A stretch of DNA of 50,277 bases, filler included, from Catajapyx aquilonaris (GCA_000934665.2; 2 parts of 2 records of this genome joined end to end with filler, not necessarily neighbours in it), one strand, 5' to 3'. Numbered from the whole stretch's first letter, positions 7,637 to 50,178 are shown. Numbers and translations: made by a program. The notes: generated from the letters alone by a model not told the origin.

Positions 7637-10605
7637 TTAACTTTTTGAATAAGCTTAAGTCATTATTTTGAGGTATCTGTAACGTGCATCATTAAGGGAG
7701 ATTTTGAACTTGAATGCCATAGCTGGATTACAATGCTTAAAATTGAAAGGTGAAATGTAAGAGTGAATGATTTGTGAAGGTGTTGTGGAAGGCTCAGTTT
7801 CAGCTTTAATTTCTATAAGTGCCACCAATACATTCTCATATATTTACCACTGTGTTACGGCAAAATTAATACCAATGGGGTGAAAGTTTTGGTGTCTGAG
7901 GGTTGCTTTTTTGTCATATAAAGGGGGTCAGTAACTGGAGGATATTCTGAGATAAAAATTTTTATTGATGCTGTAAAATTTTACATAAATACCATATTAA
8001 ACATCTGTATGTAACGAAAATCAGTAACTACAATCAGGATCATTAGACATCTACATCATTTTTGCCTGCAAGGCTTCAGTGCTCTGAGCAGTGTCTATTA
8101 AGTTTTGGCAGCCCACCCGGCAACTCCTAAACTCCCTCTCTTTTTGCTTGCGCTTAGCAAGTCCCCTAACCCCGGATGTGGAGCCCTGTACCAAATCACA
8201 TTCAGGCTGACGACTTCTGAACTGTTCTTAACCTACTTAGTTGTGAGTTCTCATACAGCCCTAGTTTACGGATCCACAGCACCAGCCACCCAAATCACAT
8301 TCGGGTTGCTGGTGCTGTGGATCTGCAAACTGGAACTGAATGGGATTTGACACTTTAGGTAAGTCCAGTACGGTTCGGAATGCGATTTGGTATAGGGCTC
8401 CACATGTGTGCATGAGGGACTCCACCTCCAGGGATATGGGACTTGCTCAGCACCCAGCCTTCCCCATAAGGCTAGATAGGAGTTGGGGGNGGGGGGGGGG
8501 CGAGTTTTGGTTTTGTTAGCATTGGCAGTGTATGAAATATACTGCAGGGCGTCCCACTTTGCAAGCAGTGATGTGGGATGTTTTGTAGAGGATATTCCTA
8601 TGTATACAGTATAAGCAATGTGTGTGGGGTAACATAATCAAGACTTAATTGCTTTTACACACTATAACTATGCCTTGAAGCCTAAAATGATGCAGTCGTA
8701 GAACAGGCACATGGATCACCTTACCTGAGGAAACTCCAGGTATTACTGACCATCTTGTATACTTGCCCAAACACAAATAATTTGGCCACTTTGAATTTTG
8801 GCAGTTCGATATTCATTTGAAGAGTGGAACATCCGCTCCTCAAATGTCATCTAAGGTGCCAATCGATTCCTGCTGGAAAGTGTCAATCGTACGTCAAAAA
8901 CGTGTTTAAAGTTAAAGGTAGGGTAACAGCAATAATCCGATTCAAAAAAATACGTCTGCTCCCGACACGCCAATTTTTTGAATTTCGGGACACGGTTTGC
9001 CACGTTCGACGTAGGAAAAGACGCTTGATTTTTTTCCATTTTGTTTTTTTTTAAACGTTTTTTTGAAGGTCGATGACTGTAGTGCCCCCTTAATACAGTA
9101 CTTGTGAATGCAGTGCCACTTTTAGTGTCCGTCTGGTCCAGGATGGACCCTTTCCAGTAGGAACCTTCCTGGCACCCTAAGTACCCGTTTAGGAGCGTGG
9201 AACATGTCTCTTCAAATAAGACAGCCAGAAATTCAAGATGACCGAATTATTCTGTGTTAGGACCAGTAGTGCCCCTAGTATGTTGTCATCCCATAGCTAT
9301 CTAGTGATCATAGTTTGACTAAGCATTGTACTATGACTGGATGGCCAATTTACTTACAACTGTGTGTTGTCAGTTGCACATAATTAGGCCGTTGTATGAT
9401 TCCACATTACCACATCATTGAGATGAAAAGATTGTTTCCCCAAATGTATCATGTTATTCCAATTGTAGTACCGAATTTGAAATACCGAAGTAAAAAAGAA
9501 ATAAAGAGTGAGATTCTGGATCTTGGTCAAGCTTACATCCTGTAACAGTGTAACCTGTTGTCAGCATACAAGAGAAATTCGCTGTCCAATTTTGTCAGTT
9601 TGAGCTCTCCATACCAAGAAGTACCGTAGCATTTTCTGTGATACATCTGCTGGTGAAGTCAATTTAATTCATAGCCAGCCAGCAACCCAGGATTTTATGT
9701 TGTCACTACCAGGTAAACAAGTGCAAGTCAAATCTTTGCTTGGAATCATCTTGAAACCAGTTGTTGTTGCTGTTATTGTTATTATTTTATTTTATTTTGG
9801 TTGGGGGGAGGGGGGGATTGTGAATTTTCCTTGTATGTCCACAATATATTGACAGTTAGCCTTTCAGATAACAGTCACTCTGGCTGATTGACATTTTCCA
9901 AAACTGCAGCCTCATTTTGCAAAATGCATGGAGCTAATAAGCTTTATTATCGCTTGGAATTGCCACTTCTTGGTAAAAGTAGAACTGTTCCATTACTCAG
10001 CTAACAGGGGAAGTGTCAGAGATGACACTCGTAAAGCACACATTTTATTACATCATTGGAAAGAGCTTATTATTCTGATTACAATGGGTCTTACAAGAAC
10101 TGCTACATCGCAGCCGTTTTAAGAGAAAATCGCTTTCATTGGTGTGGGGCAAGTATGTAAAGAAAATGCCCCTAGACAATAAAAGAATGATCTTGTGGAA
10201 CTCGATGAAGACAGATCCAAGTAGAGTCATCCGCACGTGCCTAACACACACATCCTAGGTGTGGAGGAGCTAGTACCTGACAGGTGGCCGCAATGCGAGG
10301 AATGTTTGGCATCTGCAAAGAAAATGCAAGGAACATTTTAATGTGCAGGTAGATGGAGCCAAAGAGATGAATCACTGCAGGGTTTAATGTTTGATAACAG
10401 ATTTAAGTTAGTTTGCTGGGACTTTTTATGCACAATTTCCTTGGCCATAGTAACACACACTATTACAAAATATATCCCTTCCCAGTTGTAATTAAAAATG
10501 GTTTACACTGGGCATAATGGTAGGTTCATTATTACAATGAAGATAGGACTATCTAACCATAAGAATTAACATTTATAGTATAATAATAATTATATTAATA
10601 ATAAT

Positions 10606-15300: not shown

Positions 15301-18046
15301 AGTTAGGTCCAGTTTGGTGCAGGACTTTCAATGTATTTCTTTGGCATTAAGAAAAACACCTTTTCAGTACATAGAAATTTTAGTGGAATGGAGGGATTCT
15401 ATAATTATGAAGGTTTTGCTGTGCATGAAACACATCAGCAAAAGTAGCAAAAGGTACTTTGAGACAAAAACTGTAAAGTATGCTAAATTAAATTATAAGG
15501 ATACATCATGCTAAATTGTTATGATTGACAGAGAGTTCCTGAATATTCATATTGCTGAATATAACGACATGTTAACCATTGTGAACAATAGCAGAAGAGA
15601 ATATATGCATTGTTATTCATAACAAGGATTCAGGGGTCGAAATATTCGGATGCAAAGGTGCAATTTGCAATCCAAAATTGTCATCTACACTCCAAACTGA
15701 GCCTTGGAGTGCAAAGTTTGCACTCCAGTTTATCCTGCTTTTAAACATGGAAATACCCAGTAATAAAAAATTGAGCACGCGATCTAAGTATTTGCACTCC
15801 AGGTAAAAGTCTGGAGTGCAAACTTTGCATCTGGACAAAAATTTTAAAATCCGACCCCTGGGATTGGGACTTACATCATATTATTTACATGTCCTAAGTA
15901 TACAGCAGGGTGATCCAACTTTATAGGCCACACAGTTATTGGAAAAATCGCGTAAGCTGCTACCTTTTAAGCTGCTACTTGCTAAGAGTTACTTTCTCGA
16001 GTGTCTGAAATAGCACCTGGTGATATTAGGTCCAATGCCCATGTACCAATTTATGACCTACTTATTGACACAACTGGGTCTGTCCGGTTCGACGGATTAG
16101 CCCTCTGATTGGCAGCTAGTCACCTCATCTGAATCGAGTGAATCCCTCCAGCGAACACCAAAATGGGCCCTTTTGAAGGCCAACACATGAATCAGTTTGG
16201 AGATGGGGAAATAAAAGAGATTATGACACCTTTCCATTTAAGGGTCGCAACAGTTCGCATCCGATACCCCTCGCGATTGACCCATTTGGCCAGTCACAAC
16301 CCGGCAGACGACCTGTTTCCCACGGTGGGTGACCCTTATTTTTTCCCTCATTAATTGGTACATGGGCATTGGACCTAATATCAGCAGGTGCTATTCCAGA
16401 CACTCGAGAAAGTAACTCTTAGCAAGTAGCTGCTTAAAAAGTAGCAGCTTACGCGATTTTTCCAATAACGGTTGGGGCGATAAAGTTGGATCACCCTGTA
16501 TACAATACATTTTGATCAGGTGTATCCTACTTACGGTAGCAGGATTTACTCGGGCCCACTCAACACCAATATGGTGGCCCCAGAGTGCTCTAGCTCCTGA
16601 CAGTTGATTCTTGGCCACTGCAGCTGCTCGGTGGCTTTCATACTCCACAAATGTAAACCCCTGGTTAATCTCACCTCCAGGTAACATGTATACAATGCAC
16701 CTAACCACTCCTTCTGTCAAGCGGGAAAACTCTTCCAACACTTCTTTCTCCCCCTTGCTCCTCGGGATCCCACATACATACAGCTGACAATTGTCAGTTG
16801 AACGAATCACCTCAAGTTGTATTTTAGGTCTGATCTCGACACCACTGAGGTTCTTGATGGCTTTTATGGCATCGTCACGCGTGGTGTACATGACATAGGC
16901 ATAACCCCTGTTGGCCCCGCTGAAGTCCATCATAAGTCGTAGCTCATAGATGGGTCCGATCGTCTCGAAGTGAGGTACTAGCTCATCTTCGAAACAGTCA
17001 CGAGGAATCTTGCCAACAAACACCTCGCAGCCTTTGGGTGGTGGGGAGCCCTTCCAGTCAGGAGGAGGGCCACCATACCTCCGCTGACCATTCTCCTGCA
17101 GTCATATTAATAATATTTATATTTATATTTATGAATATTATCATAAAAACGAACCCATAAAAAGGTACATGAGTCCATATTGTTGTAGCACATATGTACT
17201 ATCTAATTTATATGTATAACCCCCACACACCCACACACACACACAGCCTTGTCTTCACTAAGGAGTGGGGACGTGAAAATTCAACTTTTCGAAGCTAGTG
17301 TAAACTAACCTAACCTAACCTAACCTACCCTTCCCTAACCTACCCTTCCCTACCCTACCCTAACTAACGTAGGCTGAGAAAAATGGACTTTTGTGAAACC
17401 CTACAAATGAAAATAGTGGGGACATGTCCCCACTGATTTGGGCATGTCCCCACTGTAAGCCTAATAGTACACATCGCGTGTGTGAGACTGTGGGGACAGA
17501 CGTCCCCACAGCTACAGTAAAAGCACAAACTTCCGTCCCCAGACCTTATTGAAGACAAGAACACAAAAAGTGAGGTAATCTCACGAGCAAAAAGATGAGG
17601 ATTCCCTGGAATTCACAGAGGACAGAGATGTCAGTTGTAGGACTTGACTACACAGTAACACACATGAAGACCTTCATGGCCTGCTAGGTAGCCTTGGTGC
17701 CAAACTTAGTGCCTTTTTGCTCACTCCAGTGTTTCTCTCATCATTAATTCATTATCATCACCTAACTAACCTGCACTATGTTGTAGTCGGTCCTCTTCAT
17801 GAGGGCCAGCAGGGCCTCGTCCTTGTTGATCACCCCCTGCTGCTGTTTCTTCTTCACTCCCTGGGCCTTTCCTCCTTTCTTCGTGGCTCCAACCCCGTCG
17901 GACCCCGCTGCAGTCTTCTCATACTCTGCCTTGCTCGCCCTCGCCCATCCGGCGTATCTCTGCGCAGCATCTGCCCATGCCTTGCTCGCCAGGCCGTCGT
18001 CGTATCCCTGAGCATCCTCCTTCTTCTGCCCCACCTCGGCCATCAT
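12344..18046 (-). CDS. RBM46/RBM47/A1CF-family three-RRM RNA-binding protein (exons 18046-17771, 17095-16535, 15190-15013, 14893-14701, 12826-12709, 12469-12344)
   Basis: Family motifs [84 protein letters not shown] and IEVAWAKP are present, and all splice phases are consistent. The paralog cannot be assigned; the start codon and last exon are tentative. Confidence 0.85.
13448..14411. mobile_element. Non-autonomous TIR element with TGTTACAAC subterminal repeats
   Basis: TA|AGGGAGATTGGGGTCGGTTGTAACA ... TGTTACAACTGACCCTGATCTCCCT|TA; the motif recurs several times internally. Confidence 0.75.
15631..15860. mobile_element. MITE with 5-bp TSD
   Basis: GGATT|CAGGGGTCG ... CGACCCCTG|GGATT, with internal TGGAGTGCAAA/TTTGCACTCCA repeats. 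Confidence 0.7.
15906..16498. mobile_element. Tc1/mariner MITE with ~145-bp TIRs
   Basis: CAGGGTGATCCAACTTTAT... / ...ATAAAGTTGGATCACCCTG|TA. The terminal 12 bp are identical to those of the element at 36365-37730. Confidence 0.85.
17246..17561. mobile_element. (CA)n-associated MITE with CCTAA tract, copy 1
   Basis: TIR CTTGTCTTCA.TAAG..TGGGGACG; internal GTGGGGAC/GTCCCCAC palindromes and (CCTAA)n; abuts (CA)n. Confidence 0.75.
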
Positions 18047-19529: not shown

Positions 19530-21009
19530 AGTTTTTAAAAAATAAAAATGTTGATTTTTTTCATCGTTCGGTGTATCTTTTATTTAATAAGGATAATAAA
19601 AATTACGTGTCAAATCGTGGCGGTAGCCTTTATTTATTAATATTAAAGTTGAAAATGTAGGTGTTTGCCGATATTTTTTAAAGACAAAACAATTAAAATC
19701 TTCGCTCCTGTGGAAACTATAGGATGATCGTTCCTTTTTGTTTTATAGCGTTTTTGAAGACGCTTTCAACCATGCCTTACATTTTCAATTTGTACCGTAC
19801 CGTAAGTTTAAGCTTGATAAATGAAAAACCTCTGGATGGGGCTGGTCCTAAACTCTCGGGAAAGCCGGTTCTATACTGTAGCCTACCTATATGAAGTTAT
19901 GAGCCTGCCACAGCTTTGCCCTAGGTTGTGTTGTCGAGTCCTGTGTTTCACTGAGCCGAAATCGCATGAGCTAGCTGGAACGGACATGGTATGTGTCAAG
20001 TGGAAACATAATGGGAATCCAATAAGCTTATGTATCAGCGCGCCGCGTATACCACCTTACCTTATTGTCAACTCATACACCCAATCCCCGCACTCATGGC
20101 CGAGTTTCTGACAGGATGTGTGGACTATGTGAACTTGCGGCCTCCATGTGTCACGGAAGGGCAGGGAGACGGTGAGGTATTGTCGGGATCCACTGGGTCA
20201 TGCATGGATCCTTGATGTTAGGTGCGGCGGAAATCTGTGATCATATATCTGTAACATACTATACCATATTTAATGCCCCAACAATTTACATTACCATTTT
20301 CTCCTTGGCACTTAAACACTGTCTTTTCAACCCCTGTTGACGACTTCCGGACCACCTTCCTTCCCCTTTGCACCTGATCATTAACATTTAACCAATCCCT
20401 TTCCAAAATCAAGAAACAAAATCATACGTAACTCAAACAACAGTTGAAATTCCATACTTCTCAAAGGGGCAAAAGCAGATCAATCCCACTTCCGTCTAAC
20501 GTTAATCTCTTCAGCAACAACGCCAATAATGAAGAATGTTCAATGAACGTAACAATGCCCGGAGAAGAGGTCAACAGTCCTATTGAACTTCACACTACAA
20601 AGTGAATACACACATTTCCCCAATCCTTCAACATTAAACACAAACACCTGGTTTAGCACTTCAATATGTGATGGGGACTCCCAAAGAGAGGAAGGATCGC
20701 ACGATAGCCAGACATCCACGGACAGGTGTATAATCCCCCTGGCGCCTTAGAGATTAGCTGATAAGCCCCTAATTAGCGACAGGTGGATAATCCTTTGACA
20801 TGCCGCCCAATTAGTATGTCGCGTGTCGCGTATGAACCTACTCGTAGACGTGTTGCACCGGCGGTATGTCGCGTGCCGTGCACCTGTTATGTCGCACACC
20901 TAACCTATACGTTCCCCCCGCCAGACAGGTGTCGTACGCGTGTCACACCTGTTTCGCACCGCCCGTGCCGCGTTGCCGAGTTGCAGGTGTCGGACGCGTG
21001 TCATGCCGC

Positions 21010-21335
21010 TCCGCCATCTTGGATCCCCGTCTCAGACCCGGGGCAGCCATCTTGGATCCGCTCGCGTTCCGCCATCTTGGATCCCCAGCCTCAGAACCGG
21101 GCCAGGGAGCAGCCATCTTGGAGCCACACACAGTAAGCAGCCATCTTGGATTTTTATATTCCTTAAAAGTATTATTTCGGAAAAATTGTTCCCAGCCGGT
21201 TTCGATCCTTGGACCTTTCGTTTTGGAGGCCGACACCCTAACCATTACGCTAGGGGAGCCCCCGAAGATTTAGAGGGTTGGAAGCTCTACTCATGCCTCT
21301 GGTGCGGGCCACGTGGCCGGTGACTCCACCCCTTC
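21010..21335 (+). repeat. Left GCCATCTTGGA (YY1-type) motif array and adjacent conserved block
   Basis: Five GCCATCTTGGA copies (21013, 21046, 21071, 21112, 21140), then CCCGAAGATTTAGAGGGTTGGAAGCTCT...GGCCACGTGGCCGGT, which has an inverted homolog at about 24390-24455. Confidence 0.8.
21181..21259 (-). ncRNA. Degenerate tRNA-like Pol III unit
   Basis: A-box TAGCGTAATGG (21252-21242), B-box GGATCGAAACC (21208-21198), CTCCAAA loop and an immediate T5 run (21185-21181). Stems are imperfect, so this is not a canonical tRNA. Confidence 0.45.
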
Positions 21336-21829
21336 ACAGCCAACCCCCAAGCCCACCATCCCCTGATCCCCACCCACCACCCCCAGTCCAACTCCCACCC
21401 ATCCCCCTTCAACCCCCCATCCCCCCTCAACCCCCACCCGAATGCTTGCAACTGGATGATGCGTCAGCCCCGCGTCGANCGCCCGAATGCTTGCAACTCG
21501 ATGATGCGTCAACCCTGCGCCAACTTGTCGCCTTTGTAGGGAACCAGTGTCCTCCAAAAAAAGAAGAAGAAGAAGAAGAAAAAAAGAATCATGCCATGCC
21601 TTTTACGTAGCGTGTAATATTCCCTCTGCTTCTCTCACTCTCGAGCTGCCATATTGCATCCACATATGAGGCAACCATCTTGTATCCGCACATATATTAC
21701 TTAAAATTTCTGGTGGAAGGAGAGACGCCATAAAGTCGTAGGACGAGAATACTCGAAGGGAAGCATGTCCCACCTTGTTGGACTTTCTCTTAGAGTGGCT
21801 CATCTGGATTATTGTGATGGGGTGGGGAG

Positions 21830-21990
21830 AAATGGGATGGCCATCACTCCAGGATGACTTGTCTCATTCAAGCAACAACTTGTATGAGCGCGTCATAAGG
21901 CTTAGAAACGTCACTTCCTTGGGGGAGGGGGCTTTTTCACTATAAAAACCAAGAAGGGAAGGGAGGCTCTCTCTCACAATTCCCTGAACT
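21830..21990 (+). promoter_or_regulatory. Repeated promoter module, copy 1
   Basis: TTAGAAACGTCACTTCCTTGGGGGAG followed by TATAAAA; homologous to 23052-23220 and 24933-25040. Confidence 0.65.
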
Positions 21991-22078
21991 ACCAGAATGA
22001 CTCGACTCACCTCAAACCAGCCAGCCAGCCATACAGCAAGACATCCCGGACATATCAGCCCAGCATCTACTCCTAAAC

Positions 22079-22576
22079 ATGTCCGGCTACCTAAACTCAG
22101 CGTGTAAGTACAAAGATTCAGTCGTTGATTAATTTATTTTTTATTTAATAGATTGGTGTACTAATCTCTATCTGTCACATTCAGATGCCATTACTACCTC
22201 CAAGTGGCCCACTTACCTCGTGGATGACAATGCCGTTGAGCCGGAGGAAGGGGTGCAGATTGTGAGGGTGGTGGATAGTGATCGCTACAGGAGCAAGATT
22301 TACTTTCGGGACGACTCGGATGATGAGCCGCAGGAAGAGATGAATAGGTTGGGGGATCGTGCTGATCGCTTCAGACGCAAAATTTACTTGCGGGATGACT
22401 CTGATGACGAGCCGGAGGAAGAGGTTCAGGTGGTGAAGGTGGTGCAGTTCGATCGCCACAATAGTCGAATTGACCCTGTGGAGTATGAAGCAGATGCGCC
22501 AGAGGAAGAGGAGACACCCGTGGTGAAGACTAGGAGCGGAAGAGTGGTCCGCCCACGACAGCTGCTAAATTTGTAA
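22079..22576 (+). CDS. 138-aa acidic repeat protein of unknown family (exons 22079-22103, 22185-22576)
   Basis: ATG plus a 25-nt exon, a GTAAGT...CTAAT...CAG intron and an in-frame second exon; internal repeat DR.R.KIY.RDDSDDEP.EE; C-terminal KTRSGRVVRP; AATAAA at 22597. Confidence 0.65.
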
Positions 22577-23051
22577 ATAGTGTTTTTGGTTGTTCAAATA
22601 AATTATTGTGTCCCTAAAAGAAAAAGAAATGAAGTTTTCGTTCCCCTCCAGCGCACATTAAAAAGCAGCATTGCTAAGTTGGGAGGATTTGGAAGCCATG
22701 AAACCTCCACTTCGTCGACAAGTTCGTATTTTAAAAAAAATTACTACTATTATTTTTTATTTTTAAAATTTTTAGGCAGGGTGATTTATCACAGTGATTT
22801 ACACACGAGCAGACTCATCACGTATACTTTCAGTTGGTTGTTAGCATTTTGTGTCTTGCGGGGTCTTGTTTGGATTTTTGTTTCTTCGCGAGGTAAGTGG
22901 AAACTTTAATATTACACCAAAGAAAGAAAAAAAGCTACCTCTGTTACGTTAAATCATTTCGGAACTCGAGATGCAACTCAGTGTCCCAAGCATGTCTCAC
23001 CTTGATGTATACTTTCGTCTAGAGTGATTCGTAGGGATTCTAATGAGGGTA

Positions 23052-23220
23052 ATGGGATGGCCAAAGAGGATTTAGGGTTATCACGCTCTGATGACCAAGC
23101 CTCATTGCTCAACTCGTGCAAGTTTCAACTGCTACAAAAGGATTAGAAACGTCATTTCCTTAGGGGAGTGGCCTCGCCAAATAAAGGCCAGGATGGGAGG
23201 AGAGACAGTCTCACTATTCC
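23052..23220 (+). promoter_or_regulatory. Repeated promoter module, copy 2
   Basis: TTAGAAACGTCATTTCCTTAGGGGAG followed by AAATAAAGG, upstream of the AlkB-like gene. Confidence 0.65.
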
Positions 23221-23369
23221 TAGTACTACCAGTCGGACTGTACTAGCCACATACCAGCCAACCAGCCAGCCAACTCCCCCTGCTCAACCAGCCAGCTTTC
23301 TACTCTTCTCTGCTCAACCAGTTAGCCACCCTATCATCTAGTCCAGGCCATTCTGCATCTACCCTAAAA

Positions 23370-24186
23370 ATGTTTGGATGCACAGCTTCAGCATGTAAGT
23401 ACAGAGACTTTGTTATTTTTTATTTAGGACCAGTGTGCTAATTTCTCTATGTCATATGCAGATGACATTCCTCCTCCTCCTTCAAAGAGGTGCACTTACT
23501 CTGCTGAGGTGGAGGGCATGGAGGAGTCAGTTAAGCGCGAAGAAGAGGACATTGGGAAAGTGAATTCCCCTCTGTACTGGAGGAAAACTCTCGATCTGGA
23601 CCTGGACGTGTCCAGCTGTAGGCTCTTGACGGGGGAGGCAGCCAGCACCATGTTCACCTTTATGGAAAAGAGCATCAGGTACCTCTCCGACGAGGAGGCC
23701 ATGGTGTATATCCGTGGAGAGTGGCGTAAGATTCCCAGACAAATAGCAGCTTTTGGAGAATCTACCGACCTGGCCATCAAATTCTCTGGAACGATTATCT
23801 CGGCTGAGATCTGGCCTCTCGAAATACAACAACTCGCTCATATCTTGTGGTTGCAGACCACATACCGTTTCAATTTTGTTGTTGTGAATCGCCTGGATGG
23901 TGAGAAGTATAGCATCGGGCTTCACAAAGAGATCCAAGGGAGAGCGTCTGGGGCTTTCGCAGTGGTCACCCTGGGATGGCCCCGCTCAATAATTCTCACA
24001 TCAGAAGATGGGTTAAAATTACAATTGGAACCCTTGCGAATTAAAACCGGTTTAGGCCACTGCATATTGGTCAGACCACCCACCCCCAGCAAATGGCTCG
24101 TCGAGGTACCCAAAGATAGCTATGCTAAGGGCATTTCGATTGTAATGATTTTTCATAAGGTTGGCCTACAATTAAAAAAAATGTAG
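23370..24186 (+). CDS. ALKBH2-like 2OG-Fe(II) oxygenase-fold protein, 249 aa, catalytic residues substituted (exons 23370-23394, 23462-24186)
   Basis: VYIRGEWRKIPRQIAAFG, KFSG, FNFVVVNR, IGLH, VTLG and PPT..W align by eye to ALKBH2 VQVFGKWHSVPRKQATYG, YTFSG, FNFVLINR, IGEH, VSFG and HPTNTHW. Confidence 0.8.
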
Positions 24187-24309: not shown

Positions 24310-24555
24310 TGTAACATGGCTGCTCGGATTCAAGATGGCTCTTCGGATCCAAGATGGACTCTGGGTGGTGTGGTTGGGGTGTGGGGTTTAACCGGTCACG
24401 TGGCCCCCACCCTAGTAAAGGATACAGAGCGTCCAACCCCTCTAAACCTTTCGGGACTCCAAATCGGATCAAAGATGGCTGCAACCTGTGTGGACTCAAG
24501 ATGTCAGCTCGGATCAAAGATGGTTGCCCCCTTGCATGGCTCCAAGATGGAGTCT
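24310..24555 (-). repeat. Right AAGATGG (YY1-type) motif array, inverted homolog of 21010-21335
   Basis: Five AAGATGG copies plus two one-mismatch variants, and ACCGGTCACGTGGCCCCCACC...AGAGCGTCCAACCCCTCTAAACCTTTCGGG. Confidence 0.75.
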
Positions 24556-24932
24556 GGGAATCTTAATCGGAGCGAGGCAGAAGCAGGGGAGGGGGAAATG
24601 AAAGCTTGTACGTGGAGGGTAGAAATAAGTCGAGGATTTTTAGGTGCGACAGGTCGTCACCGGATGACGAATGCTCGAGTCATCCTAAGCTGAGCACTTC
24701 AAAGTCACCACTTCTCCCTTCTTCTTATTCTGGGTGGGGATGATACACAACGGCTACAGAAAAATGATGGCAAAATTCTACAAAGGTTTAAAACCGTTTT
24801 TGGATGCAAGGGAAATGTATGTAAAAAATATGACTGTCGAACCTTGTCAGAGCTGCATACCCCGTCGGAAGTAGAGGCGCCACAAAAGTCACAAGGACAA
24901 AATACCAGAGGGGAAACTTACCTTGAAGGTCT

Positions 24933-25040
24933 AAGAGGATTTAGGGTTATCACCCTCTGATGACCAAGCCTCATTGCTCAACTCGTGCAAGTTTCAACTG
25001 CTACAAAAATGATTAGAAACGTCATTTCCTTAGGGGAGTG
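24933..25040 (+). promoter_or_regulatory. Repeated promoter module, copy 3 (cut by the gap)
   Basis: Nearly identical to 23064-23188 and runs directly into the N spacer. Confidence 0.65.
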
Positions 25041-25160
25041 GCCTCCCCAAATAAAAGGTCNNNNNNNNNNNNNNNNNNNNNNNNNNNNNNNNNNNNNNNN
25101 NNNNTTAATTAATTAANNNNNNNNNNNNNNNNNNNNNNNNNNNNNNNNNNNNNNNNNNNN
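25041..25160. other. Artificial contig-join spacer
   Basis: N runs surrounding TTAATTAATTAA (25105-25116), a six-frame stop linker. Confidence 0.9.
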
Positions 25161-26507
25161 GTGGTGCATGTCGGTCAGTACACACCGGGTAAATCCATAC
25201 CCGAGTTGTTCCCAGATTATTCAACAAATCTCCACGACAGGTTCATAAACGGAACTCTCGCCTTTGATTTGTCTAAATCCGAGCTGCAATTCATGTTGGA
25301 CAATTCGGTGCCAATGTTTGGTTGCCTGATGTTCCTGCTTTTCGTAAGTGACACCCTTAATTTCCACTGGAATCTGGAAGCAACGCAAGTAGATGATGGC
25401 GAGATTCCTGATATGTTGTTGCCTGATGGTAATTATACGGGACAAACCGGTGACATCATCCTAAGGAAAGCGGAGATAGGCTTTATAGTGACAACATTTG
25501 TCAGCCGGGTTGTTCAAGTTGTTTTTCCCGACTATTTTGTGCAGATGACATTTTCCACGCGGACTTCGATGCCTAGTTATTCCTGGAATTCCATTTTGAT
25601 GCCTTACACTCCTGAAATGTGGGTTTTAATATTATTAGCCACTCTAATATGCAGCTTTGTCCTTTTCGCCCTGCTAAGAATAGAGAGCACTTTTCGCAAC
25701 CCTTTTCCAGACAAGGGTCCGTCCTATTCCCTCTTCCTCTACTCGGCCAGATACCTGTTTTCCACCCTGATCGAGGAAAACCCCAACACCATCCCCCGAG
25801 GTGACCCCTCCAGACTCTTCATCTCCTTCTGGTGGATCTATTCCCTGGTCATCATCATCGGGTACGAAGCCTTGTACTTCGGATTCTTAGCGTCTCCAGT
25901 TCAGGAGGATTTGCCTGATTCGTGGCAAGAACTCAGTGGGAAAAGTGATAACTGGCAATGGGGAACCTTCGAAGTAGCTAAGCCTTACTACTCAAATATT
26001 TTCATAGACAACGATTTGGAGTACTTTCAGCCAATTGCTAACAACATGCAGGATCAACCTGATTTCACTGCTTGCGTTCGTAAATCGATAGAGGAAAATT
26101 ACGCTTGCATAGCTCCAGAGGACTTCTTGTTGGCATTTGGGACTCAGTACATAGACCAGGCTGGAAAGATTCCCCTTCTCATTGCTCGAGACGCTGTCAT
26201 CTTCATATTTTGTACCTTTATTTTGGACAAGCAAAGTTTGTTGGGTCCAATCTTCAACAGAATGACAGTTTATTACATAGATTCGGGACTGATGGCCAAA
26301 TTCGACAAGTACTTGGAGTACACCTGTCTGATGATAGGTCTTAGAGAAGCCAGAAAGAAAAAAAGATGGTATCTCCAGTCAATGGCTTTGAATTTTGACC
26401 AGCTGAGAGCAGTCGTGTATTTTCTCGTCATATTCTGCTGGGGCTGTGGGATTTTAATTTTCATCGCAGAGAAACTGTTCTTTAATATTTTTACAACACT
26501 GGTGTAG
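25161..26507 (+). CDS. Divergent ionotropic receptor (IR), intronless, 5' end lost in the gap
   Basis: iGluR/IR layout: S1 (GNYTGQTGDIILRKAEIG), ILMPYTPEMW before M1, RLFISFWW...IIGYEALYFGFLASP (M2/M3), S2 ending DSGLMAK, LNFDQL and M4. The ORF starts at the first base after the gap. Confidence 0.85.
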   Translation: MVHVGQYTPGKSIPELFPDYSTNLHDRFINGTLAFDLSKSELQFMLDNSVPMFGCLMFLLFVSDTLNFHWNLEATQVDDGEIPDMLLPDGNYTGQTGDIILRKAEIGFIVTTFVSRVVQVVFPDYFVQMTFSTRTSMPSYSWNSILMPYTPEMWVLILLATLICSFVLFALLRIESTFRNPFPDKGPSYSLFLYSARYLFSTLIEENPNTIPRGDPSRLFISFWWIYSLVIIIGYEALYFGFLASPVQEDLPDSWQELSGKSDNWQWGTFEVAKPYYSNIFIDNDLEYFQPIANNMQDQPDFTACVRKSIEENYACIAPEDFLLAFGTQYIDQAGKIPLLIARDAVIFIFCTFILDKQSLLGPIFNRMTVYYIDSGLMAKFDKYLEYTCLMIGLREARKKKRWYLQSMALNFDQLRAVVYFLVIFCWGCGILIFIAEKLFFNIFTTLV

Positions 26508-30499: not shown

Positions 30500-31115
30500 A
30501 TAAGAAGACCAAGAGTACACCAAGTACTGGTCAAACTTGTCCATCAAGTCCGCATCTCTATATNATATAAAATATAAAACATGAGTTTGTTCAGGATCGG
30601 TACAGTGTTGGTCATATATCGAGGCAACCACCAGCGACATTTTCCGAAGCGGCAGAAGAAGGAATCGAAGACAAGCATACTTACAAGCCGGGCGAGCAAG
30701 TTTCCTTCTTCTGCTGCTTCGGAAAATGTCGCTGGCGGTTGCCTGGATATATGACCAACACTGTACCAACAAACTGTGTTTGTCGGTGATCCAAACCACA
30801 CAAGCAACTCAGCGTTGTTGGACGGAACAACCGGAACTTTTCCAGCTTTATCTATGTACTGGACACCGAAAGTGAGCAGTGTGTCTGCTGGAGCTGTGTA
30901 TGAAAAATTGCTCTCTATTGATATTGTGATATTGTCAGGCTGCTCGACCATGTTGCCTGTGGGCCTGATCCTCATTGGTCATTAAAATGCCTGAAAAATA
31001 AGGCTTGGCTAATTCAAGCGTTCCCCACTGCCTGGCGTTGCGGAGATTGCTGAGATCTTGGTATGTCTTCGGTAAGTCTTCAAGCCTGGGAGATGCTAAA
31101 AACCAGGAGATACTC
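30500..31115 (-). pseudogene. IR pseudogene fragment paralogous to 25161-26507
   Basis: FLASPRLEDLPKTYQDLS..QWGTLELAKPYFS, TFGVQYIDKAGKVP, DKHSLL and DADLMDKFDQYL match the IR at 25161. Contains frameshifts and a MITE insertion. Confidence 0.85.
30603..30763. mobile_element. Palindromic ~160-bp MITE, copy 2
   Basis: TA|CAGTGTTGGTCATATATC...GATATATGACCAACACTG|TA, inside the IR pseudogene. Confidence 0.85.
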
Positions 31116-42058: not shown

Positions 42059-43387
42059 AGTCATCTTCGGCACCACACAAAAATTCACACGCACACAGTA
42101 CACTCAAAGCAACACCATCTTCTTATGCAAAAAGAACAGTACTAATTTGTCAACCCTCCCTCACTTGCTCCCCCCTCAAAAAAATAACAATAACGAAAAA
42201 AAAAAAAACTTTCTTGGAAGGTAGAAAATGGCCGTCTGATGCAGCAACTTGCTAGGGGAGATATATTGTTCTGTTGTTCTTCTCCCCCCCCCTCCCCTCC
42301 TCCCAAACCTTCAGAAGAGTGGGCAGCTGGGGGCCACACAACCAAACAAACTCAAAATGTCCTCTCGCCTTACTCCCTCGACGAAACTAAGGTGGAGTCG
42401 CCCAGGGTTCGCCACAATAAACGGGGAGAGAGAGAGACAGAGAAGGGAAGAACTAAAAAAGAACAAGGAGGGCCGGATGAAGCACAGCAGCTGACTGGGA
42501 CCTGCCCCTCGATTGACAGCTGGGCACTGTGAAGAAAGAACGGCTATATTATCCCCCGAAAGAACGGCTACATTGGATCCGCTCGGCGATTTAAAAGCGC
42601 AGCTGTTCTTTGTAAGCTACTAGCCTTTTAGCTGGTTATTAGCTATTATATTAGTTGATGGGGGCAGAGACCTCTCAGGAGAGGATCGCGCAGCGTGGGT
42701 GAGCTTTCAGGCAGAGGAAGATAGATGGCGGGAAGGTGGCCGTTTTGTGCTGGTTGCTTCGATTCGGTAGGGCACGCCCACTTTAGCGGGTGCGTTCAGA
42801 TGGTACTTAGCGGATGATTCAATAATATTGGGATTCAATAAGAGTGATACTCGTACTATATACAGTACTGTGTTGGACAGGGAAATGTCGCTAGAAGTAT
42901 GATGGCAGCATGGTCTTAGAATACTAAGGTCTGGACACTTCCACTTACAGCCTGCCGAGGCGTTTTGCATGAGGTGCCGGCGACCATGTTGGGTCCCCCC
43001 AATGTAGCCCTTCCCTTATTTTGTACCTATAAAGTTCAGCGTCGTCCGCCACGTGATAGCTCCGTGAGAGGTATCATGCAAAACGCCCCGGCAGGCGATA
43101 ATATAAGATTGCAGGGGAATAAAGTGTCCGGGAGCTGGGGATGGCGGTATGTCCAGCCAAAATGGTGAGAATTTCCCGCTAAGTGGCGGCGACACCTATA
43201 TTGGCTCATGTTTCGCAGAAATGACATGAGATAATATTAGGGGTAGGGTAGCTGCCTTTTTATTTAGCGTGATACAGTGAGATAAATAGAGTTAAATGCA
43301 GTATTATATTTGCATATGTGTGCACTTTTATCTCAATCTTCTCCAACAGGAATTTTCCACAAAACACCAGGGTACCTTAGAGTACTA

Positions 43388-43552
43388 CAGCTGGTCATAT
43401 ATCGAGGCAACTGCCAGCGACATTTTCCGAAGCGGCAGAAGAAAGAATCTTGCTCGCCCATGCTTTAAGAATGATTATCTTCGATTCCTCCATCTGCCGC
43501 TTCGGAAAATGTCGCTGGCAGCTGCCTCGATATGCCTATATGACCATAACTG
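43388..43552. mobile_element. Palindromic ~160-bp MITE, copy 3
   Basis: Same family as 2895-3056, TA-flanked; absent from the other copies of the tandem unit. Confidence 0.8.
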
Positions 43553-43694
43553 TACGTAGAACGTAGGTTATACTTCTAATGATCGAAGAAATTTCTGAAT
43601 AACACATTACTCAAGGTACGGCTCTCCTGCGATACAAAATCATTGACAATACGAACTACGGCCTAGAACTAATTAATAATAATTTTTAAAATGA

Positions 43695-43870
43695 TTCATA
43701 CCCCGTTATCAAACGGCGGCTGTGGCCTATTAGTTTAGGAACCAACTCCGGAATTCTCCTGGAGGAACCGTGGGAAACCACAGAAAACCACGAGTAGAGT
43801 TGCCGGCACCGGGATTCGAACCCAGGAATTCCCGATTAGCAGTCGCGCCACCACTGCTTCGGTGGCCGAG
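43695..43870 (-). mobile_element. tRNA-derived SINE, family C copy 2
   Basis: B-box GGTTCGAATCCC on the minus strand; homologous to 10606-10865. Confidence 0.7.
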
Positions 43871-45732
43871 ACCTAATTATTATTGTCCTTCTTACTTTCG
43901 CATGAGCCTATTTTGTAGGTTCATGAAAAGGCCTTTGGTAACACTTTATCCCTAATTATTACACATACTTTGGATAACTTTATACATTTGGTCTCAATTG
44001 ATTAATTAAGGGACACTCCACTCAAAAAACAAGTTTGGCTCTAAAAATCGGGCAAAAAAATCCTGAATATGACGGTGCAATTCGTTTTTCGCTACGCGGA
44101 ACGGTAATCCCAGGGCGATCCCGAGCGATGTGAGTTGTAGCTGTTCTGAAGTCATGACGCAGGCGATAATGCTTAATACATCGCGCGTGTGTTTACCTGC
44201 AGGGGATGTGCATCGCTACGGCATGCCAACTTTTCTATTCTCCTATAATATTCTATGTCCTCGGAGAGGGGCTTCATATACTATTGACTCGCTTTGCTCT
44301 GGGGGTAGGCTTGGCCCCCTGCTCCGCACCGTATGATCCAATATAGAAGTACGACGATTTCAGCAAATTCGTCTCGTACGGTTCTCAAGGCAGATTTTCC
44401 GACTATTTTAACCTATTTCATAATTAAATAAGGCTAATAGTTGTCCAGTAGTACTTGAATTTATAGTTGTCTTAAGGCGATTCCATGAACTTGTAAGTAG
44501 TACTATAGCGGTTATTATGCATAAAATATTTTATCCCGATTTGTAAGTTGAAGAGATGCGAGAATCTAGGCGATGGCAATGTAGCTGGTACTGTACGAGT
44601 ATATATCAAAATCACAGTTATGATAACAAACCACGTCTTTACATGTGGTGTAACTTACTACACGTCGTATTAAACATTACAAAATGTTATTTGTTATCGT
44701 TTTCAATCAGTTACAATATTGCGGCGTATGTGTCACCTTGTTTCGCAAAAATGATGAGATATAATATTTGGGGTACCTTTATATTTTTAGCATGATGCAA
44801 TATGACAAACGGTGATAACTACAGCTACATAATTTGGTACATGTTTGAACTTTTATCCCAATTTTCTTCAACAGTAATCTTCCACAATACACCAGCAGGG
44901 TATACCTCAGATTACGTAGGTTATACTTCCAACGATCGAGGGAATTTCTGAATAATACATTACACAAGCAACGTCTCTCCTGGCGGTACAAAATCATTGA
45001 CTAGTAGGACAGTAGGACTACATTATGAAGTAAGTCCGAGAACTAATTATCCTACTTATTACTTACGCATGAGTCAATTTTGTAAGTTCATGGGAAGGTA
45101 TCGGTACAACAATACAGATACTGTGGATAACTTTATAGATTTTCTCACAATGGAAAGATGTTAACGCTTTTAATATTGTATAATGACGGAAAAATCTCCA
45201 CAGGCGACAGAACGTCGCACATACGCAAAATACTGCCAAAAGGACTCTGCCACTTTGTTTCGCAGAAAAGATATGACATAATATTAGGGGTTGATGCCTT
45301 TTTATTTGGCGTGATACAGTGAAATAACTAGAGGTAAATACAGTATTATATTTCGTACATGTTTGCACTTTTATTTCAATCTTCTCCAACAGGAATTTTC
45401 CACAAAACACCAGAGTACCTTAGAGTACGTAGGACGTAGGATATATACTTCTAACGATCGAGGGAATTTCTGAATAATACATTACACAAGCTACGGCTCT
45501 CCTGGCGATACAAAATCATTGACATTACGAACTACGGACGAGAACTAATTATTGTCCTTCTTACTTTCGCATGAGCAAATTTTGTAGGTTCATGAAAAGA
45601 CGTTTGGTAAAAATTTAACCATAATTACACACACACTTTGGATAACTTTATACATTTCCTCACAATGGATTAATGAAGAAGGGCACCACTTTTAATATTG
45701 TCAAGAGCTGATATTGTATAAGTACGTAAAAA

Positions 45733-47691
45733 TCACCAGAGGCGACAGAGCTTCGCACGTACGCAAATTTCTGCCAAAAAGACACACGAGGCCAACGCAA
45801 TTCCAAAAAATAAAATGAGTAAAGTTCCCTCAACGTGGCGCCTTGTGAAGAGTGTGTCCTTTGTTAGCAAGAAATAATCTAGATTGCCTTTACTTTTTTG
45901 CTCACGGGATTTGTAGAAAAGCAAATGATTCTTCCACATTTCATCCACATGCTTCTCTATTCCAATGGTATTATAAATCTGCATCCACTTATCGAAATTA
46001 TCGGCATACACACTGTCTTTAATCACGATGACTGACACAAACAAAATGGCAAAATTATCAGAGGAGATGAATGTCTTGGTCTCTCCGTAATCTTCTGCTA
46101 TCGGAGAAAGGTTCCTCAACACAGCTTCAGATTCGAAGCATACAGTGTCGGCGGTAAACAGATCCTGAATGCAATCATCTCTTTCCTTTACAGCAGACAT
46201 TTTAGAAATTAAATCGTGGTATTCCTCTAGTCCTGGTGCACTTGAGTCTGCAGCGGAAAGATATGACAAAATCTCTGGAGTAGTTTTAATGGAGAAAGTG
46301 GATCTTCTTAGCTCGTCAATGTTGCGGGGAATTATTTCCTTAGGAGGAGACACTAGTAAATCATAGAGCTTACTTCTGTACCCTGTGCCAATAACAACGC
46401 AGAAGTATATCCACATTAAAACGAAGATTTTGTGAGATGAAAATTTTGGAAATGGCACACCTTGTTCCAGGGCAATTTTCGAGAGATATGAAGATATAGA
46501 TAAGACTGACCTAAAAGGAAGGAAATTATTTTCAGGCTGTCTTGTATTTGTTTTCGAGAGTAATGATAAAAATCCCACGGAAATAATGAAAGAAGCAACT
46601 GAAATACACCAAGCAGTTAGTGTGTAAGGCATGACCATAATTAAAGGCGTGATTATTGGGCGCGGCAGCCGTGCAAGAAATGTGAATCTGAACATGTCAT
46701 GGGGTGACGCGAAAGAAGCTACTTTGTAGAGAATTTTCATTATTGGAGCGTTCGGCATAAATGCTAATACTTCAGTCCTAAAGTCATGAAATAGTTGCAC
46801 CAGTGCCCCTTCATCCTGCAAAATTGCGTCAAAACCAATGTAATCCACCTGCCACTTGAAATTAAGTGCTTTTCCCAAGAAGCACATATGTTGATACTTC
46901 TCTTGAGAGGTGCCGCACATTGTTGAATTGCCCTCCCACCCGAAAATGCCTTTCAGAAACCTTCCATTGAAATTTTGGGCAGTGTCTTTGAACATCAATT
47001 CTTTTGTTTCAGCATCAGGCGTGTCCTCGGACACTGAGAAGAATTCAATTTGTGGGTCCCAATCATCACAATAGAAACAGATCGATTTGCAGAGGACCGT
47101 CCCGTTTTGGGAAGGAACAACTGCGACCTTGAACTTGATTTTGGACCATGGTCTCTGGAGGAGATGGTCCTCCTCATCCTCCTCCTCCTTATCTTATAGC
47201 GAATCCCGAACCCACAACACGAATCTGTCCTTGGCCTTCCTTTCCTCCAGAAGGGGGTGTTCCTCAGGGTCCAGAAGTTGGTTCATCATGTCCTCGTGGT
47301 TTTGGGTGCAGGTCACCACCAGAAACAATGCGCACTTGGCCACTCTGCGGTCCTCCTGGAAAGTGCTGGACACCACGTCATCAGAAGGTGTTGATGGTGC
47401 GTCGCCACAATTCCAGGCACTTCGGGACATGGTCGTGATCAGGAGAGGTCGTCCAGTCGATGACATGTTTGCGAGGAAAGTCTGCAACCCTCTCGGGATG
47501 TGACCGCCAACGTCATGGGCCACCACCACCGGACATTCAATGTCCATAATACTATTGTCTTGCAAGAGTCTAGTCATAAACGTTGGAATTATCCCATCAG
47601 TACCACAGGTGCCGTTGAACAGAATGATGGCTGCAGAAGAAGTATTAACAGACACCAGCAAGAAAAATTTTGTTAGTATTAACTGCTTCAT
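45733..47691 (-). CDS. Divergent intronless IR, 652 codons, with one in-frame TAA at 47196-47194
   Basis: Signal peptide MKQLILTKFFLLVSVNTSSA; the two listed ORFs are in the same frame and linked by 53 sense codons including CKSICFYC; then MVMPYTLTAW, GTGYRSKLYDLLVSP, NTIGI and M4. Confidence 0.8.
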
Positions 47692-49300
47692 TTTGTTGTG
47701 AATTCGCAATTTTTGATTAAAAAGGAATTCAATTTTGATGGGGTGCTATATGTGAAAAGGATGACAAGAAAACTCCGTACTTAACATTTGCAAGCACATT
47801 CACAACTGAATCAATTCCATACAAACAGCAATGGACATGCGTAGTTATCATATATTATGGAAAAAGGTCGGAGAGGTGACGATTAATTTTGCTCTAAACA
47901 AAGGTTGGCCAAGTTCCAGTTTGACAACAAAAGCGGCGACGAAATTTATTACTCATTCACATGAAAACAACCGCGTTGCTAAGGCATCACGCGGGATATT
48001 GCAACTATACGTACCTTTGGGTGGTATAACTGAGGGAAGAAAATGTTGTGGTTTCAGGTTCGATAGTGTTTGTAACTACAGCACACAGGGCAGTAAATTC
48101 AAAGTATTGCATGCAATTCTTTGAGTCTCAATGCTATAGTAGTGTCGTTACTGTGCCAGACCATAACAAAACCAGATAGGAAAATCACGTGAGCGTGATT
48201 ATAGTAGACTTTTCCTCATTCTTTCACCGCGTAGGGGTCGCGGCCACTTCTTTAGAAAATCCATGGCGTTGCATGAAAATGAATTTTACATGAGGTCTTC
48301 AAGTATACGCAGTATGAATTTTGGGAGGCGGCGAAAATCCTTCGCGTCCGCCATGTGCAACCAAACTGGCCCCTGTGCCGCCCCTGTCCACCACAGCACA
48401 CGTATTGTATTTTAAGAAAATATATTTTCTATTACGATTCGTAGAGCTCACCTGATTTCAATTGACCTCCCTTCGCATGGACGGAATATACGAGTATTTC
48501 ATGAACGGGTAAAGTAAAAGCTTTGGTAATTAATTACTACCTTTAAGAGTAATGAGTCAACTTGCTGATCGAGTGCAGTCACAAATTGTGAATTATTCAC
48601 GTGATGATTGAAGAGTGCGACTAATATAATAACAGCTAATATATTTTTGTAGTATATGGTTATGATTAACTAGCAGAGGAGCCCGATCTTCGCACGCGGC
48701 CTGTTTCCATGGTAAAGCCGGGTAAAGCAAGACATAGTCGACGACATGTTTGCGATGAATAAATGATGTGACATAATATTAGGGGTACCTTTTTATTTAT
48801 CGTAATACAGTGTGATAACCAGTGATAACTAGAGACTTTACATATTACATTTGTAGATGTGTGTACTTTTATTTCAATCTTCTCCAACTCAAAAACAGGA
48901 AACTTCCACAAAACACCAGGGTATACGTATGATTACGTAGGTTATCCTTCCAACTAACCAGGGAATTTCGGAATGAACGTTACACAAGTTACCGCTCTCA
49001 TGGCGAAACTACATTATGAAGTACGGCCGAAAACTATAATATTATTCTATACGGTACTTATTTTCGCCTGAGCCAATTTTGTAGGTTCATGTGAAGGTAT
49101 CGTGGCCTTTGAACAATATTGCTGAATTGCACATAGTCTACTTTGGATAATAATTATCCAAAGTATGTTTATTTGTTAAAATGTAATTATTGTTAAAATT
49201 GGGCCCTTATTGCATTGTGGCATTCAATTTCATACATTTGCTCACAATGAATTAATTAAAGAGGTTAACGCTGTTAATATATTGTATAAGGACGTAAAAA

Positions 49301-50178
49301 TCACCACAAGCGACAGAACTTCGCACGTAGGCAAAATAATTCAGCCAAAAAGACAAAGGAGGCCGACGCACTTCCAAAAAATAAAATGAGAAAAGTTCCT
49401 TCAACATGGCGCCATGTGAAGCGTGTGTCCTTTGTTAGCAAGAAATAATCTACATTTCCTTTTATTATTTGCTTCTCCGCATTGTGGTAAAGCAAATCAT
49501 TCTTATCAATTTCCTCCCAGTGTTTCTCTATTCCAATGGTATTATAAATCTGCATCCACTTATCAAAATTATCGGCATACACACTACCTTTAATCACGAC
49601 GACTGACGCATAGAAAATGACGAAATTGTCAGATGAAATGAATGTCTTGGTCTCTCCGTAATCTTCGGCTATCAGAGCAAGATACCTCAACACAACATCA
49701 CCTTCGAAGCATACGGTGTCGGCGGTAAATAGATCATCAGCGCAATCCTCACCTTCCTTTACAGTTATTTTAGATATGAAATTGTGGTATTCCTCTAGTG
49801 CATCCGAATCCGCAGTGCCGAGTAATTCCTTACACCTGGGAGAAGTTGTAATAGAGAAAGTGGATCTTCTTAGCTCATCAATGTTACGTGGAATTATTTC
49901 TTTAGGAGGAGATACTAGCAAATCATAGAGCTTACTTCTGTATCCCGTACCAATGACTATGGAGAAGAAAATCCACATTAAAACGAAGATTCTGTGATAT
50001 GAAACTTTTGGATGTGGTACACATTGTTCCAGGGCGATTTTAGAGAGATATGAAGATATAGATAAGACTGACCTAAAACGAGGGAAATTATCTTCAGACT
50101 GTCCTGTATTTGTTTTAGAGAGTAATGACAAAAATCCCACGGAAATAATGAAAGAAGCAATAGAAATACACCAAGCAC
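49301..50178 (-). pseudogene. IR paralog of 45733-47691 interrupted by an insertion
   Basis: Highly similar to the neighbouring IR from AWCIS to RLW*; homology ends abruptly at TTA 50179-50181. Confidence 0.8.

Follow-up and report, generated by a model that had tools for sequence, protein, structure and literature searches.

Two adjacent genes with a common front end

This analysis concerns a locus in Catajapyx aquilonaris (GCA_000934665.2), lying in a window, by which is meant the whole stretch of DNA that was analysed, of 50,277 nucleotides (nt), in which two record parts are joined with filler and which reads as eukaryotic animal DNA with short GT-AG introns. Two adjacent genes on the same strand, A and B, have approximately 475-530 base pairs (bp) in common, running from upstream sequence through a TATA-like box, a CCAG leader and a first coding exon into the intron that follows. 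An earlier note on this DNA had described a common promoter, leader, 25-nt first exon and phase-1 intron, and these features were borne out when the sequence was read, the copies were aligned and the splice frames were checked. They are arranged as follows.

21757 to 22078, plus strand: upstream region and leader of gene A, 69-76% identical to copy B by segment, with a distal element (21761-21780), the core motif (21902-21927), TATAAAA (21941-21947), a TCTCAC block near the likely start site, one upstream ATG (21997) and (CCAG)n (22017-22031)
22079 to 22576, plus strand: gene A as a whole
22079 to 22103, plus strand: first coding exon of gene A, 25 nt, MSGYLNSA and one further base, 15 of 25 bases matching B
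22104 to 22184, plus strand: predicted intron 1 of gene A, 81 nt, phase 1, with GTAAGTAC, TACTAAT and CAG in that order
22185 to 22229, plus strand: start of gene A exon 2, homologous to B up to CACTTAC
22205 to 22576, plus strand: body of gene A, four in-phase degenerate tandem units, as judged from the units and the codon score
22983 to 23369, plus strand: upstream region and leader of gene B, from alignment and profile, with a distal element (22988-23007), the core motif (23143-23168), a AAATAAAG box (about 23179-23186) and (CCAG)n (23254-23272)
23370 to 24186, plus strand: gene B as a whole
23370 to 23394, plus strand: first coding exon of gene B, 25 nt, MFGCTASA and one further base
23395 to 23461, plus strand: predicted intron 1 of gene B, 67 nt, phase 1
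23462 to 24186, plus strand: exon 2 of gene B, an N-terminal tail and then the whole ALKBH2-like domain, its active site degenerate

The core 17-mer AGAAACGTCAYTTCCTT occurs three times in the window (at 21904, 23145 and 25015) against 0.01 expected, and none of 100 shuffles reaches three occurrences, while the donor string GTAAGTACARAGA occurs twice against 0.10 expected, both introns starting GTAAGTACA.AGA. After the donor, each intron has a CTAAT branch-like site and a CAG acceptor, and exon 2 then starts AT. Both open frames require the predicted splice: read unspliced they reach a stop at codon 17 in A and codon 23 in B, and spliced they run for 138 and 249 codons, respectively.

Summed over segments, A and B agree at 320 of 441 aligned positions (73%), and no segment departs strongly from this background. 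The intron was the most similar part (55/67, 82%) and exon 1 the least (60%, a score reached by 12 of 300 shuffles), with the distal upstream region (90/131, 69%), the stretch from core motif to TATA (42/55, 76%) and the leader (85/120, 71%) between them; none of 300 shuffles reached the score of the intron or of these three segments. The homology had been said to stop right after the acceptor. Rather, it passes the acceptor by approximately 45 nt, as far as CACTTAC (33/43, 77%, with 1 of 300 shuffles reaching the score), and then ends inside both open reading frames (ORFs), the next two 100-nt blocks of exon 2 giving no signal (z 1.0 and 0.5). The companion statement that the downstream proteins are unrelated was upheld, in that the best BLASTP comparison had E 9.8 and hhalign comparison of gene A with an AlkB profile gave a probability of 0.08%. 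Past the shared TY codons, homology between the two proteins was not significant in global (z 0.6-1.4) or local comparison (z -0.1 to 0.9), 105-530 of 1000 shuffles reaching the score, and a position-collinear peptide match, SKIYFR.. against SPLYWR.., is present in alignments and likewise not significant. Homology of the paralogs thus ends within their reading frames and each copy has unique coding sequence, which is the pattern of a partial duplicate.

Gene B and its relatives

Gene B is DNA-repair-like and resembles ALKBH2 (human ABH2; PDB 3h8o, 3bty and 3rzj) over the whole catalytic domain. A phmmer search of PDB sequences matched 12 ALKBH2 sequences at E 4e-14 to 2.3e-12, among them human ALKBH2 at E 4e-14 over residues 39-234 of 240, and an exhaustive HMMER search of a representative protein library returned 189 proteins at E<=0.001, the best of which, at 43-44% identity, were two unnamed proteins. 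Names were available for 3 of the 8 top library matches looked up, all of them insect ALKBH2-like proteins. A word-index homolog search with gene B found no relatives. An AlphaFold2 (AF2) model of gene B made from a 28-sequence alignment had a predicted local distance difference test (pLDDT) score of 88.5, and its top Foldseek match was the ALKBH2 structure 3rzj_A (E 2.2e-19, template modelling (TM) score 0.93), an agreement in fold that is partly expected since the alignment behind the model consists of ALKBH2 relatives; the single-sequence model was poor (pLDDT 35). A related-locus search that started from B aligned with its two closest relatives yielded three metagenome loci (L001, L002 and L003) that are 39-45% identical, with L002 a 98.7% copy of L001.

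Unlike ALKBH2, gene B lacks much of the active site. At the first iron motif it has H-K-E for the canonical H-[KR]-D, i.e. Glu for Asp, the second His is replaced by Val (W.HSLP column), and both arginines that bind 2-oxoglutarate (R.N.TFR) are replaced, by S and H; altogether, of the five residues that bind iron and 2-oxoglutarate, gene B is without three and has a fourth changed. L001 has the same iron-motif losses and has A and Q for the arginines. At the first motif the protein P0001 has H-K-E and P0002 has R-K-E, with the first His also gone, and both end before the later motifs. Gene B also differs from the ALKBH2 family in escaping Pfam: neither it nor L001 matched any family at E<=1 or reached the gathering score of PF13532 (2OG-FeII_Oxy_2), for which P0001 scored 18.7 bits against a cut-off of 31.2 and the canonical P0003 scored 110.8 bits. 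In alignment, the clade contains gene B, L001 (1005-1901), L003 (605-1111), P0001 and P0002, at 34-43% identity to B. From these motifs gene B belongs to a conserved, lineage-restricted ALKBH2-like clade that is likely non-working as a dioxygenase, and the clade looks like a family of pseudo-dioxygenases rather than a decaying pseudogene. A literature search gave, among the papers listed, no description of a clade of inactive ALKBH2 paralogs, which is not proof of absence from print.

The relatives bear on the origin of the shared front end. In L001, L002 and L003 alike, an ATG opens a first coding exon of 43 nt, a phase-1 intron of 68-69 nt follows with GTAAGTGT, TACTAAT and CAG, and a single exon then holds the entire AlkB-like body; the frame of L003 is open only when spliced. 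Because these relatives have the exon-intron layout of gene B, the module of promoter, leader, exon and intron may most simply be taken as the native 5′ end of the gene B family, and gene A would be a derived partial duplicate. An alternative explanation could be the reverse polarity, in which the module belonged to an A-like gene and an ALKBH2 copy or retrocopy without introns landed in exon 2 of one duplicate, making gene B a chimeric retrogene; genes of such origin are of the jingwei type. This would account for the whole AlkB-like domain of B being in one exon and for the short A-rich tracts at and just past its stop codon, but relatives from other organisms already have the same sequence of short exon 1, short intron and long exon, and the layout of gene B is thus older than the locus. 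Furthermore, the homolog search found A-like proteins nowhere else, and a target-site duplication around the body of B was not seen. We consider the reverse polarity unlikely.

Gene A, the third copy and the origin of the locus

The body of gene A consists of four units (22205-22291, 22292-22375, 22376-22462 and 22463-22576, stop included) of 87, 84, 87 and, with the tail, about 114 nt, each a multiple of 3 nt and in phase with the others; the start of the first still falls within the sequence common to A and B. These units of approximately 85 nt were found by repeat search and aligned by hand, and are not called by Tandem Repeats Finder (TRF). Together they would encode an acidic repeat protein with a basic, arginine-rich tail, the predicted exon-2 protein having 129 residues, and AATAAA lies about 20 nt past the stop (22597-22602). 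A codon-usage score, trained on only 684 codons, was best in the predicted frame of each gene (+0.164 for A and +0.146 for B) and was negative in 6/6 frames of two intergenic controls. Gene A matched no Pfam family at E<=1, its homolog search gave 0 of 40 candidates at E<=0.1, and an atlas lead of 0.84 was under its own threshold; nor was a donor for the body found elsewhere in the 50-kb window or among the proteins searched. A diverged or frame-shifted AlkB domain was also tried as the source of the body and rejected, since a six-frame search found no AlkB remnant in any frame of gene A (the next best match having E 0.69 among 2166 six-frame window pieces), in addition to the hhalign probability and BLASTP value given above.

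Downstream of gene B, the front end occurs a third time and is interrupted.

24925 to 25060, plus strand: third copy of the promoter, with the core motif (25015-25031), truncated at the gap
25061 to 25160, no strand: assembly gap, two runs of 44 N around a 12-base linker with stops in all frames, hiding the sequence after the third copy

This copy (C) had been noted at 24933-25040 and is indeed present, over 24925-25056, where it is 95% identical to copy B over 131 nt. Homology of B and C starts at 23056 and 24925, respectively, a spacing that fits simple tandem duplication of a 1869-bp unit, and the contig ends 136 nt into the repeat; contig breaks inside repeats are typical of assemblers. 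Because of the tandem spacing and the position of the break, the gap most likely holds a second B-like copy.

We regard it as moderately probable that the locus is a small tandem cluster produced by partial gene duplication with recruitment or internal amplification. The promoter, leader, short exon 1 and short phase-1 intron of gene B would be the own 5′ end of its ALKBH2-like clade. A segment of about 0.5 kb, from approximately 320 bp upstream of the ATG to approximately 45 nt into exon 2, would have been duplicated about 1.2 kb upstream, and the duplicated frame would have been completed by the unit of about 85 nt, amplified in phase four times, to give gene A, which would have inherited the promoter and splice signals of B. 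A later duplication, given the 95% identity, would have produced the third promoter copy, most likely at the head of a second B-like copy. As one putative promoter stands before two unrelated frames, it is a fair inference from the sequence that A and B would be co-regulated.

Several observations weigh against this reading, and they concern either its direction or the fate of gene A. The polarity rests on layout in distant relatives rather than in an orthologous locus of an outgroup; the window and L001 gave no sign of synteny; a module profile made from copies A and B misses the loci of the relatives (best E 1.6); promoter DNA is weakly similar across species, 6 of 8 comparisons being not significant; and the N-terminal similarity between B and its relatives (NSA.., KR.CT) is too short for a test and was dropped by MAFFT. 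As to gene A, it may be a dead by-product. It is plausible, though we think it falls short of probable, that A is not a gene at all and is instead a dead fragment of the 5′ end of B, with an open frame that is a by-product of a stop-poor, purine-rich repeat. This explanation shares the duplication step with the one preferred here and differs from it only on what became of gene A. The ratio of nonsynonymous to synonymous differences (pN/pS) between the gene A units is 0.71-0.98, an antisense frame across this DNA (22181-22564) stays open for 127 codons as well, the leader holds the upstream ATG, and no relatives of A were found, all of which a dead fragment would explain. It would not so readily explain that all four units keep to multiples of 3 nt in phase, that the frame joins exon 1 only through the conserved, predicted phase-1 splice, that the predicted frame has the highest codon score, on a par with gene B, or that a candidate AATAAA follows the stop. 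The opposite fate is possible and is put forward tentatively: gene A could be a young, expressed gene beside its parent, for which the front end and about 15 exon-2 codons of a catalytically dead ALKBH2-like gene were copied, and a unit of about 85 nt seeded at the breakpoint was then amplified in phase. On this account its promoter would be active, its intron spliced and its frame translated into a new acidic repeat protein with a basic, arginine-rich tail.

The earlier note had gone further and had interpreted the front end as a reusable plug-in module for capturing cargo ORFs. One part of this stands, namely a single front end before two unrelated frames, whereas the cargo-capturing cassette does not. 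A mobile or recombinogenic cassette of promoter, exon and intron that captures ORFs throughout the genome would fit three copies with at least two different downstream sequences, and it would also fit the next ORF past the gap, which is on the same strand as the third copy, open from the gap edge and like an ionotropic glutamate receptor (iGluR; 25161-26507, plus strand, Pfam Lig_chan E 1.4e-09). If the third copy did head this ORF, the cassette would gain in strength at the expense of the tandem cluster. However, the module profile matched only 21757-22229, 22983-23510 and 24925-25056 in the 50-kb window, all within 3.3 kb, and the next best match had E 0.76. There are no inverted or direct terminal repeats at the module ends (21757/22229 and 22983/23510), as would be expected of a mobile element. 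A related second iGluR-like fragment, seen in the ORF translations about 5 kb away and on the other strand (30544-30978, minus), has no module, and within the window none lies upstream of either iGluR-like piece. Nor is the module independent, its layout being native to the relatives of B, and of the two cargoes that can be read, one is a product of internal amplification beginning within the shared sequence rather than a captured gene. Since the copies are three and local, the module is a native 5′ end, A was not captured and the third cargo is hidden in the gap, the cassette claim is unsupported, and we consider it very unlikely.

Promoter elements, neighbourhood and related systems

A distal element, (A/G)CATGT..CACCTTG, is present in copies A and B and three times upstream of the relative in L003 (approximately 101-253). 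It is the sole cross-species promoter similarity approaching significance, with 9 and 12 of 300 shuffles reaching the score of the comparison between window and L003, and it appears to resemble a p53-type half-site. For the core motif, the reverse strand is GGAAGTGACG in copy A, while B and C both have GGAAATGACG. The motif had been called a composite of ETS and cAMP response element (CRE) sites, and as a statement on sequence this is accurate for copy A, in which the reverse strand GGAAGTGACGT has an ETS core and a CRE half-site that overlap in the published register. It does not extend to a full CRE, only the half (TGACGTTT) being present in A, nor to B and C, which have GGAAAT, nor to the relatives, since L001 and L003 have an ATTGG box at that place and the core is not kept. 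A metagenome scan for the core promoter motif returned 0 stretches. A promoter motif in which ETS and CRE sites overlap, and to which GABPalpha and CREB bind, is described in PMC3464117 and PMC4555227, and copy A was compared with the consensus printed in the latter; copy A shares the same-register overlap of ETS core and CRE half-site, and the window differs in its 5′ flank (AAGG, where the published consensus has C/G-CGG) as well as in the half CRE and the GGAAAT of B and C.

Other features of the window were recorded. The neighbour on the minus strand is an RNA-binding gene of RBM46/RBM47/A1CF type, of which an exon with two RRM domains lies at 16391-17101; its best named matches are about 60% identical and spread over vertebrates, amphioxus and molluscs. 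Motifs of the GGATCCAAGATGGC type form two clusters that flank the A-B pair in opposite orientation (21007-21150, minus strand, and 24326-24558, plus strand), with at least 4 copies per cluster and 11 matches in the window against 3.6 expected, a number reached by none of 100 shuffles; alignment of the two regions is poor except at the motif units and in a few patches, and the clusters could be a repeat family or promoter-type elements. The stretch 21326-21519, upstream of copy A, has a C-rich tract whose translation would give proline-rich repeats and, after it, a direct repeat of 45 nt (21437-21474 and 21482-21519, with 92% identity) that an N interrupts; single N bases are at 8490, 21479 and 30564. 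By eye, 21180-21270 (minus strand) is similar to tRNA-derived sequence of the short interspersed element (SINE) kind, with no ARAGORN tRNA and no Rfam match there; over the whole window ARAGORN reported 0 tRNAs and Rfam 0 matches at gathering scores, and a small RNA in the conserved intron was rejected on these results. At 43200-50140 repeats form a block, their 2-5 copies being 64-95% identical, and among them are two pairs of 300 nt about 3.56 kb apart; the block probably represents tandemly duplicated elements or genes.

The locus can be compared with two systems already in print. Katju 2012 (PMC3449122) defines the classes of partial duplication with recruitment and with internal amplification, with examples including fog-2 from ftr-1, Hun from Ballchen and the antifreeze glycoprotein from trypsinogen. 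As in that class, the presumed derived copy keeps the 5′ end of its parent, homology breaks inside the ORF, and the rest of the ORF, for which the window and the proteins searched gave no donor, comes partly from an amplified short unit beside the breakpoint. The present case differs in that its polarity is without an orthologous outgroup, the derived copy is known from sequence alone and the parent is a degenerate relative of an enzyme. The second system is a Schistosoma japonicum family with a common core promoter and signal sequence and differing downstream parts (Mbanefo et al. 2012, PMC3434034), which that report describes as dispersed over 34 contigs on 18 scaffolds and attributes to DNA-level duplication near repeats. 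Genes A and B likewise share promoter and first coding part and differ downstream, but here the copies are three and local, and the 8 codons in common do not encode a signal peptide, which is what the shared part of that family is. On present evidence the locus is a further example of a known route to chimeric genes, and the cassette does not hold as a general mechanism.

If gene A is expressed, it would be a compact example of a partial duplicate that inherits regulation and splice signals and grows its frame by internal amplification. Should the young-gene account be true, this would be a birth in the style of the antifreeze glycoprotein, with parent and offspring side by side, 1.2 kb apart, and more than a single new gene would have started from this front end if yet another body follows the third copy. 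For the ALKBH2-like family, the escape of the degenerate clade from Pfam means that its members are probably missed or mis-annotated in genome annotations, and that they are conserved across organisms, at about 40% identity, suggests a function other than catalysis, possibly DNA binding.

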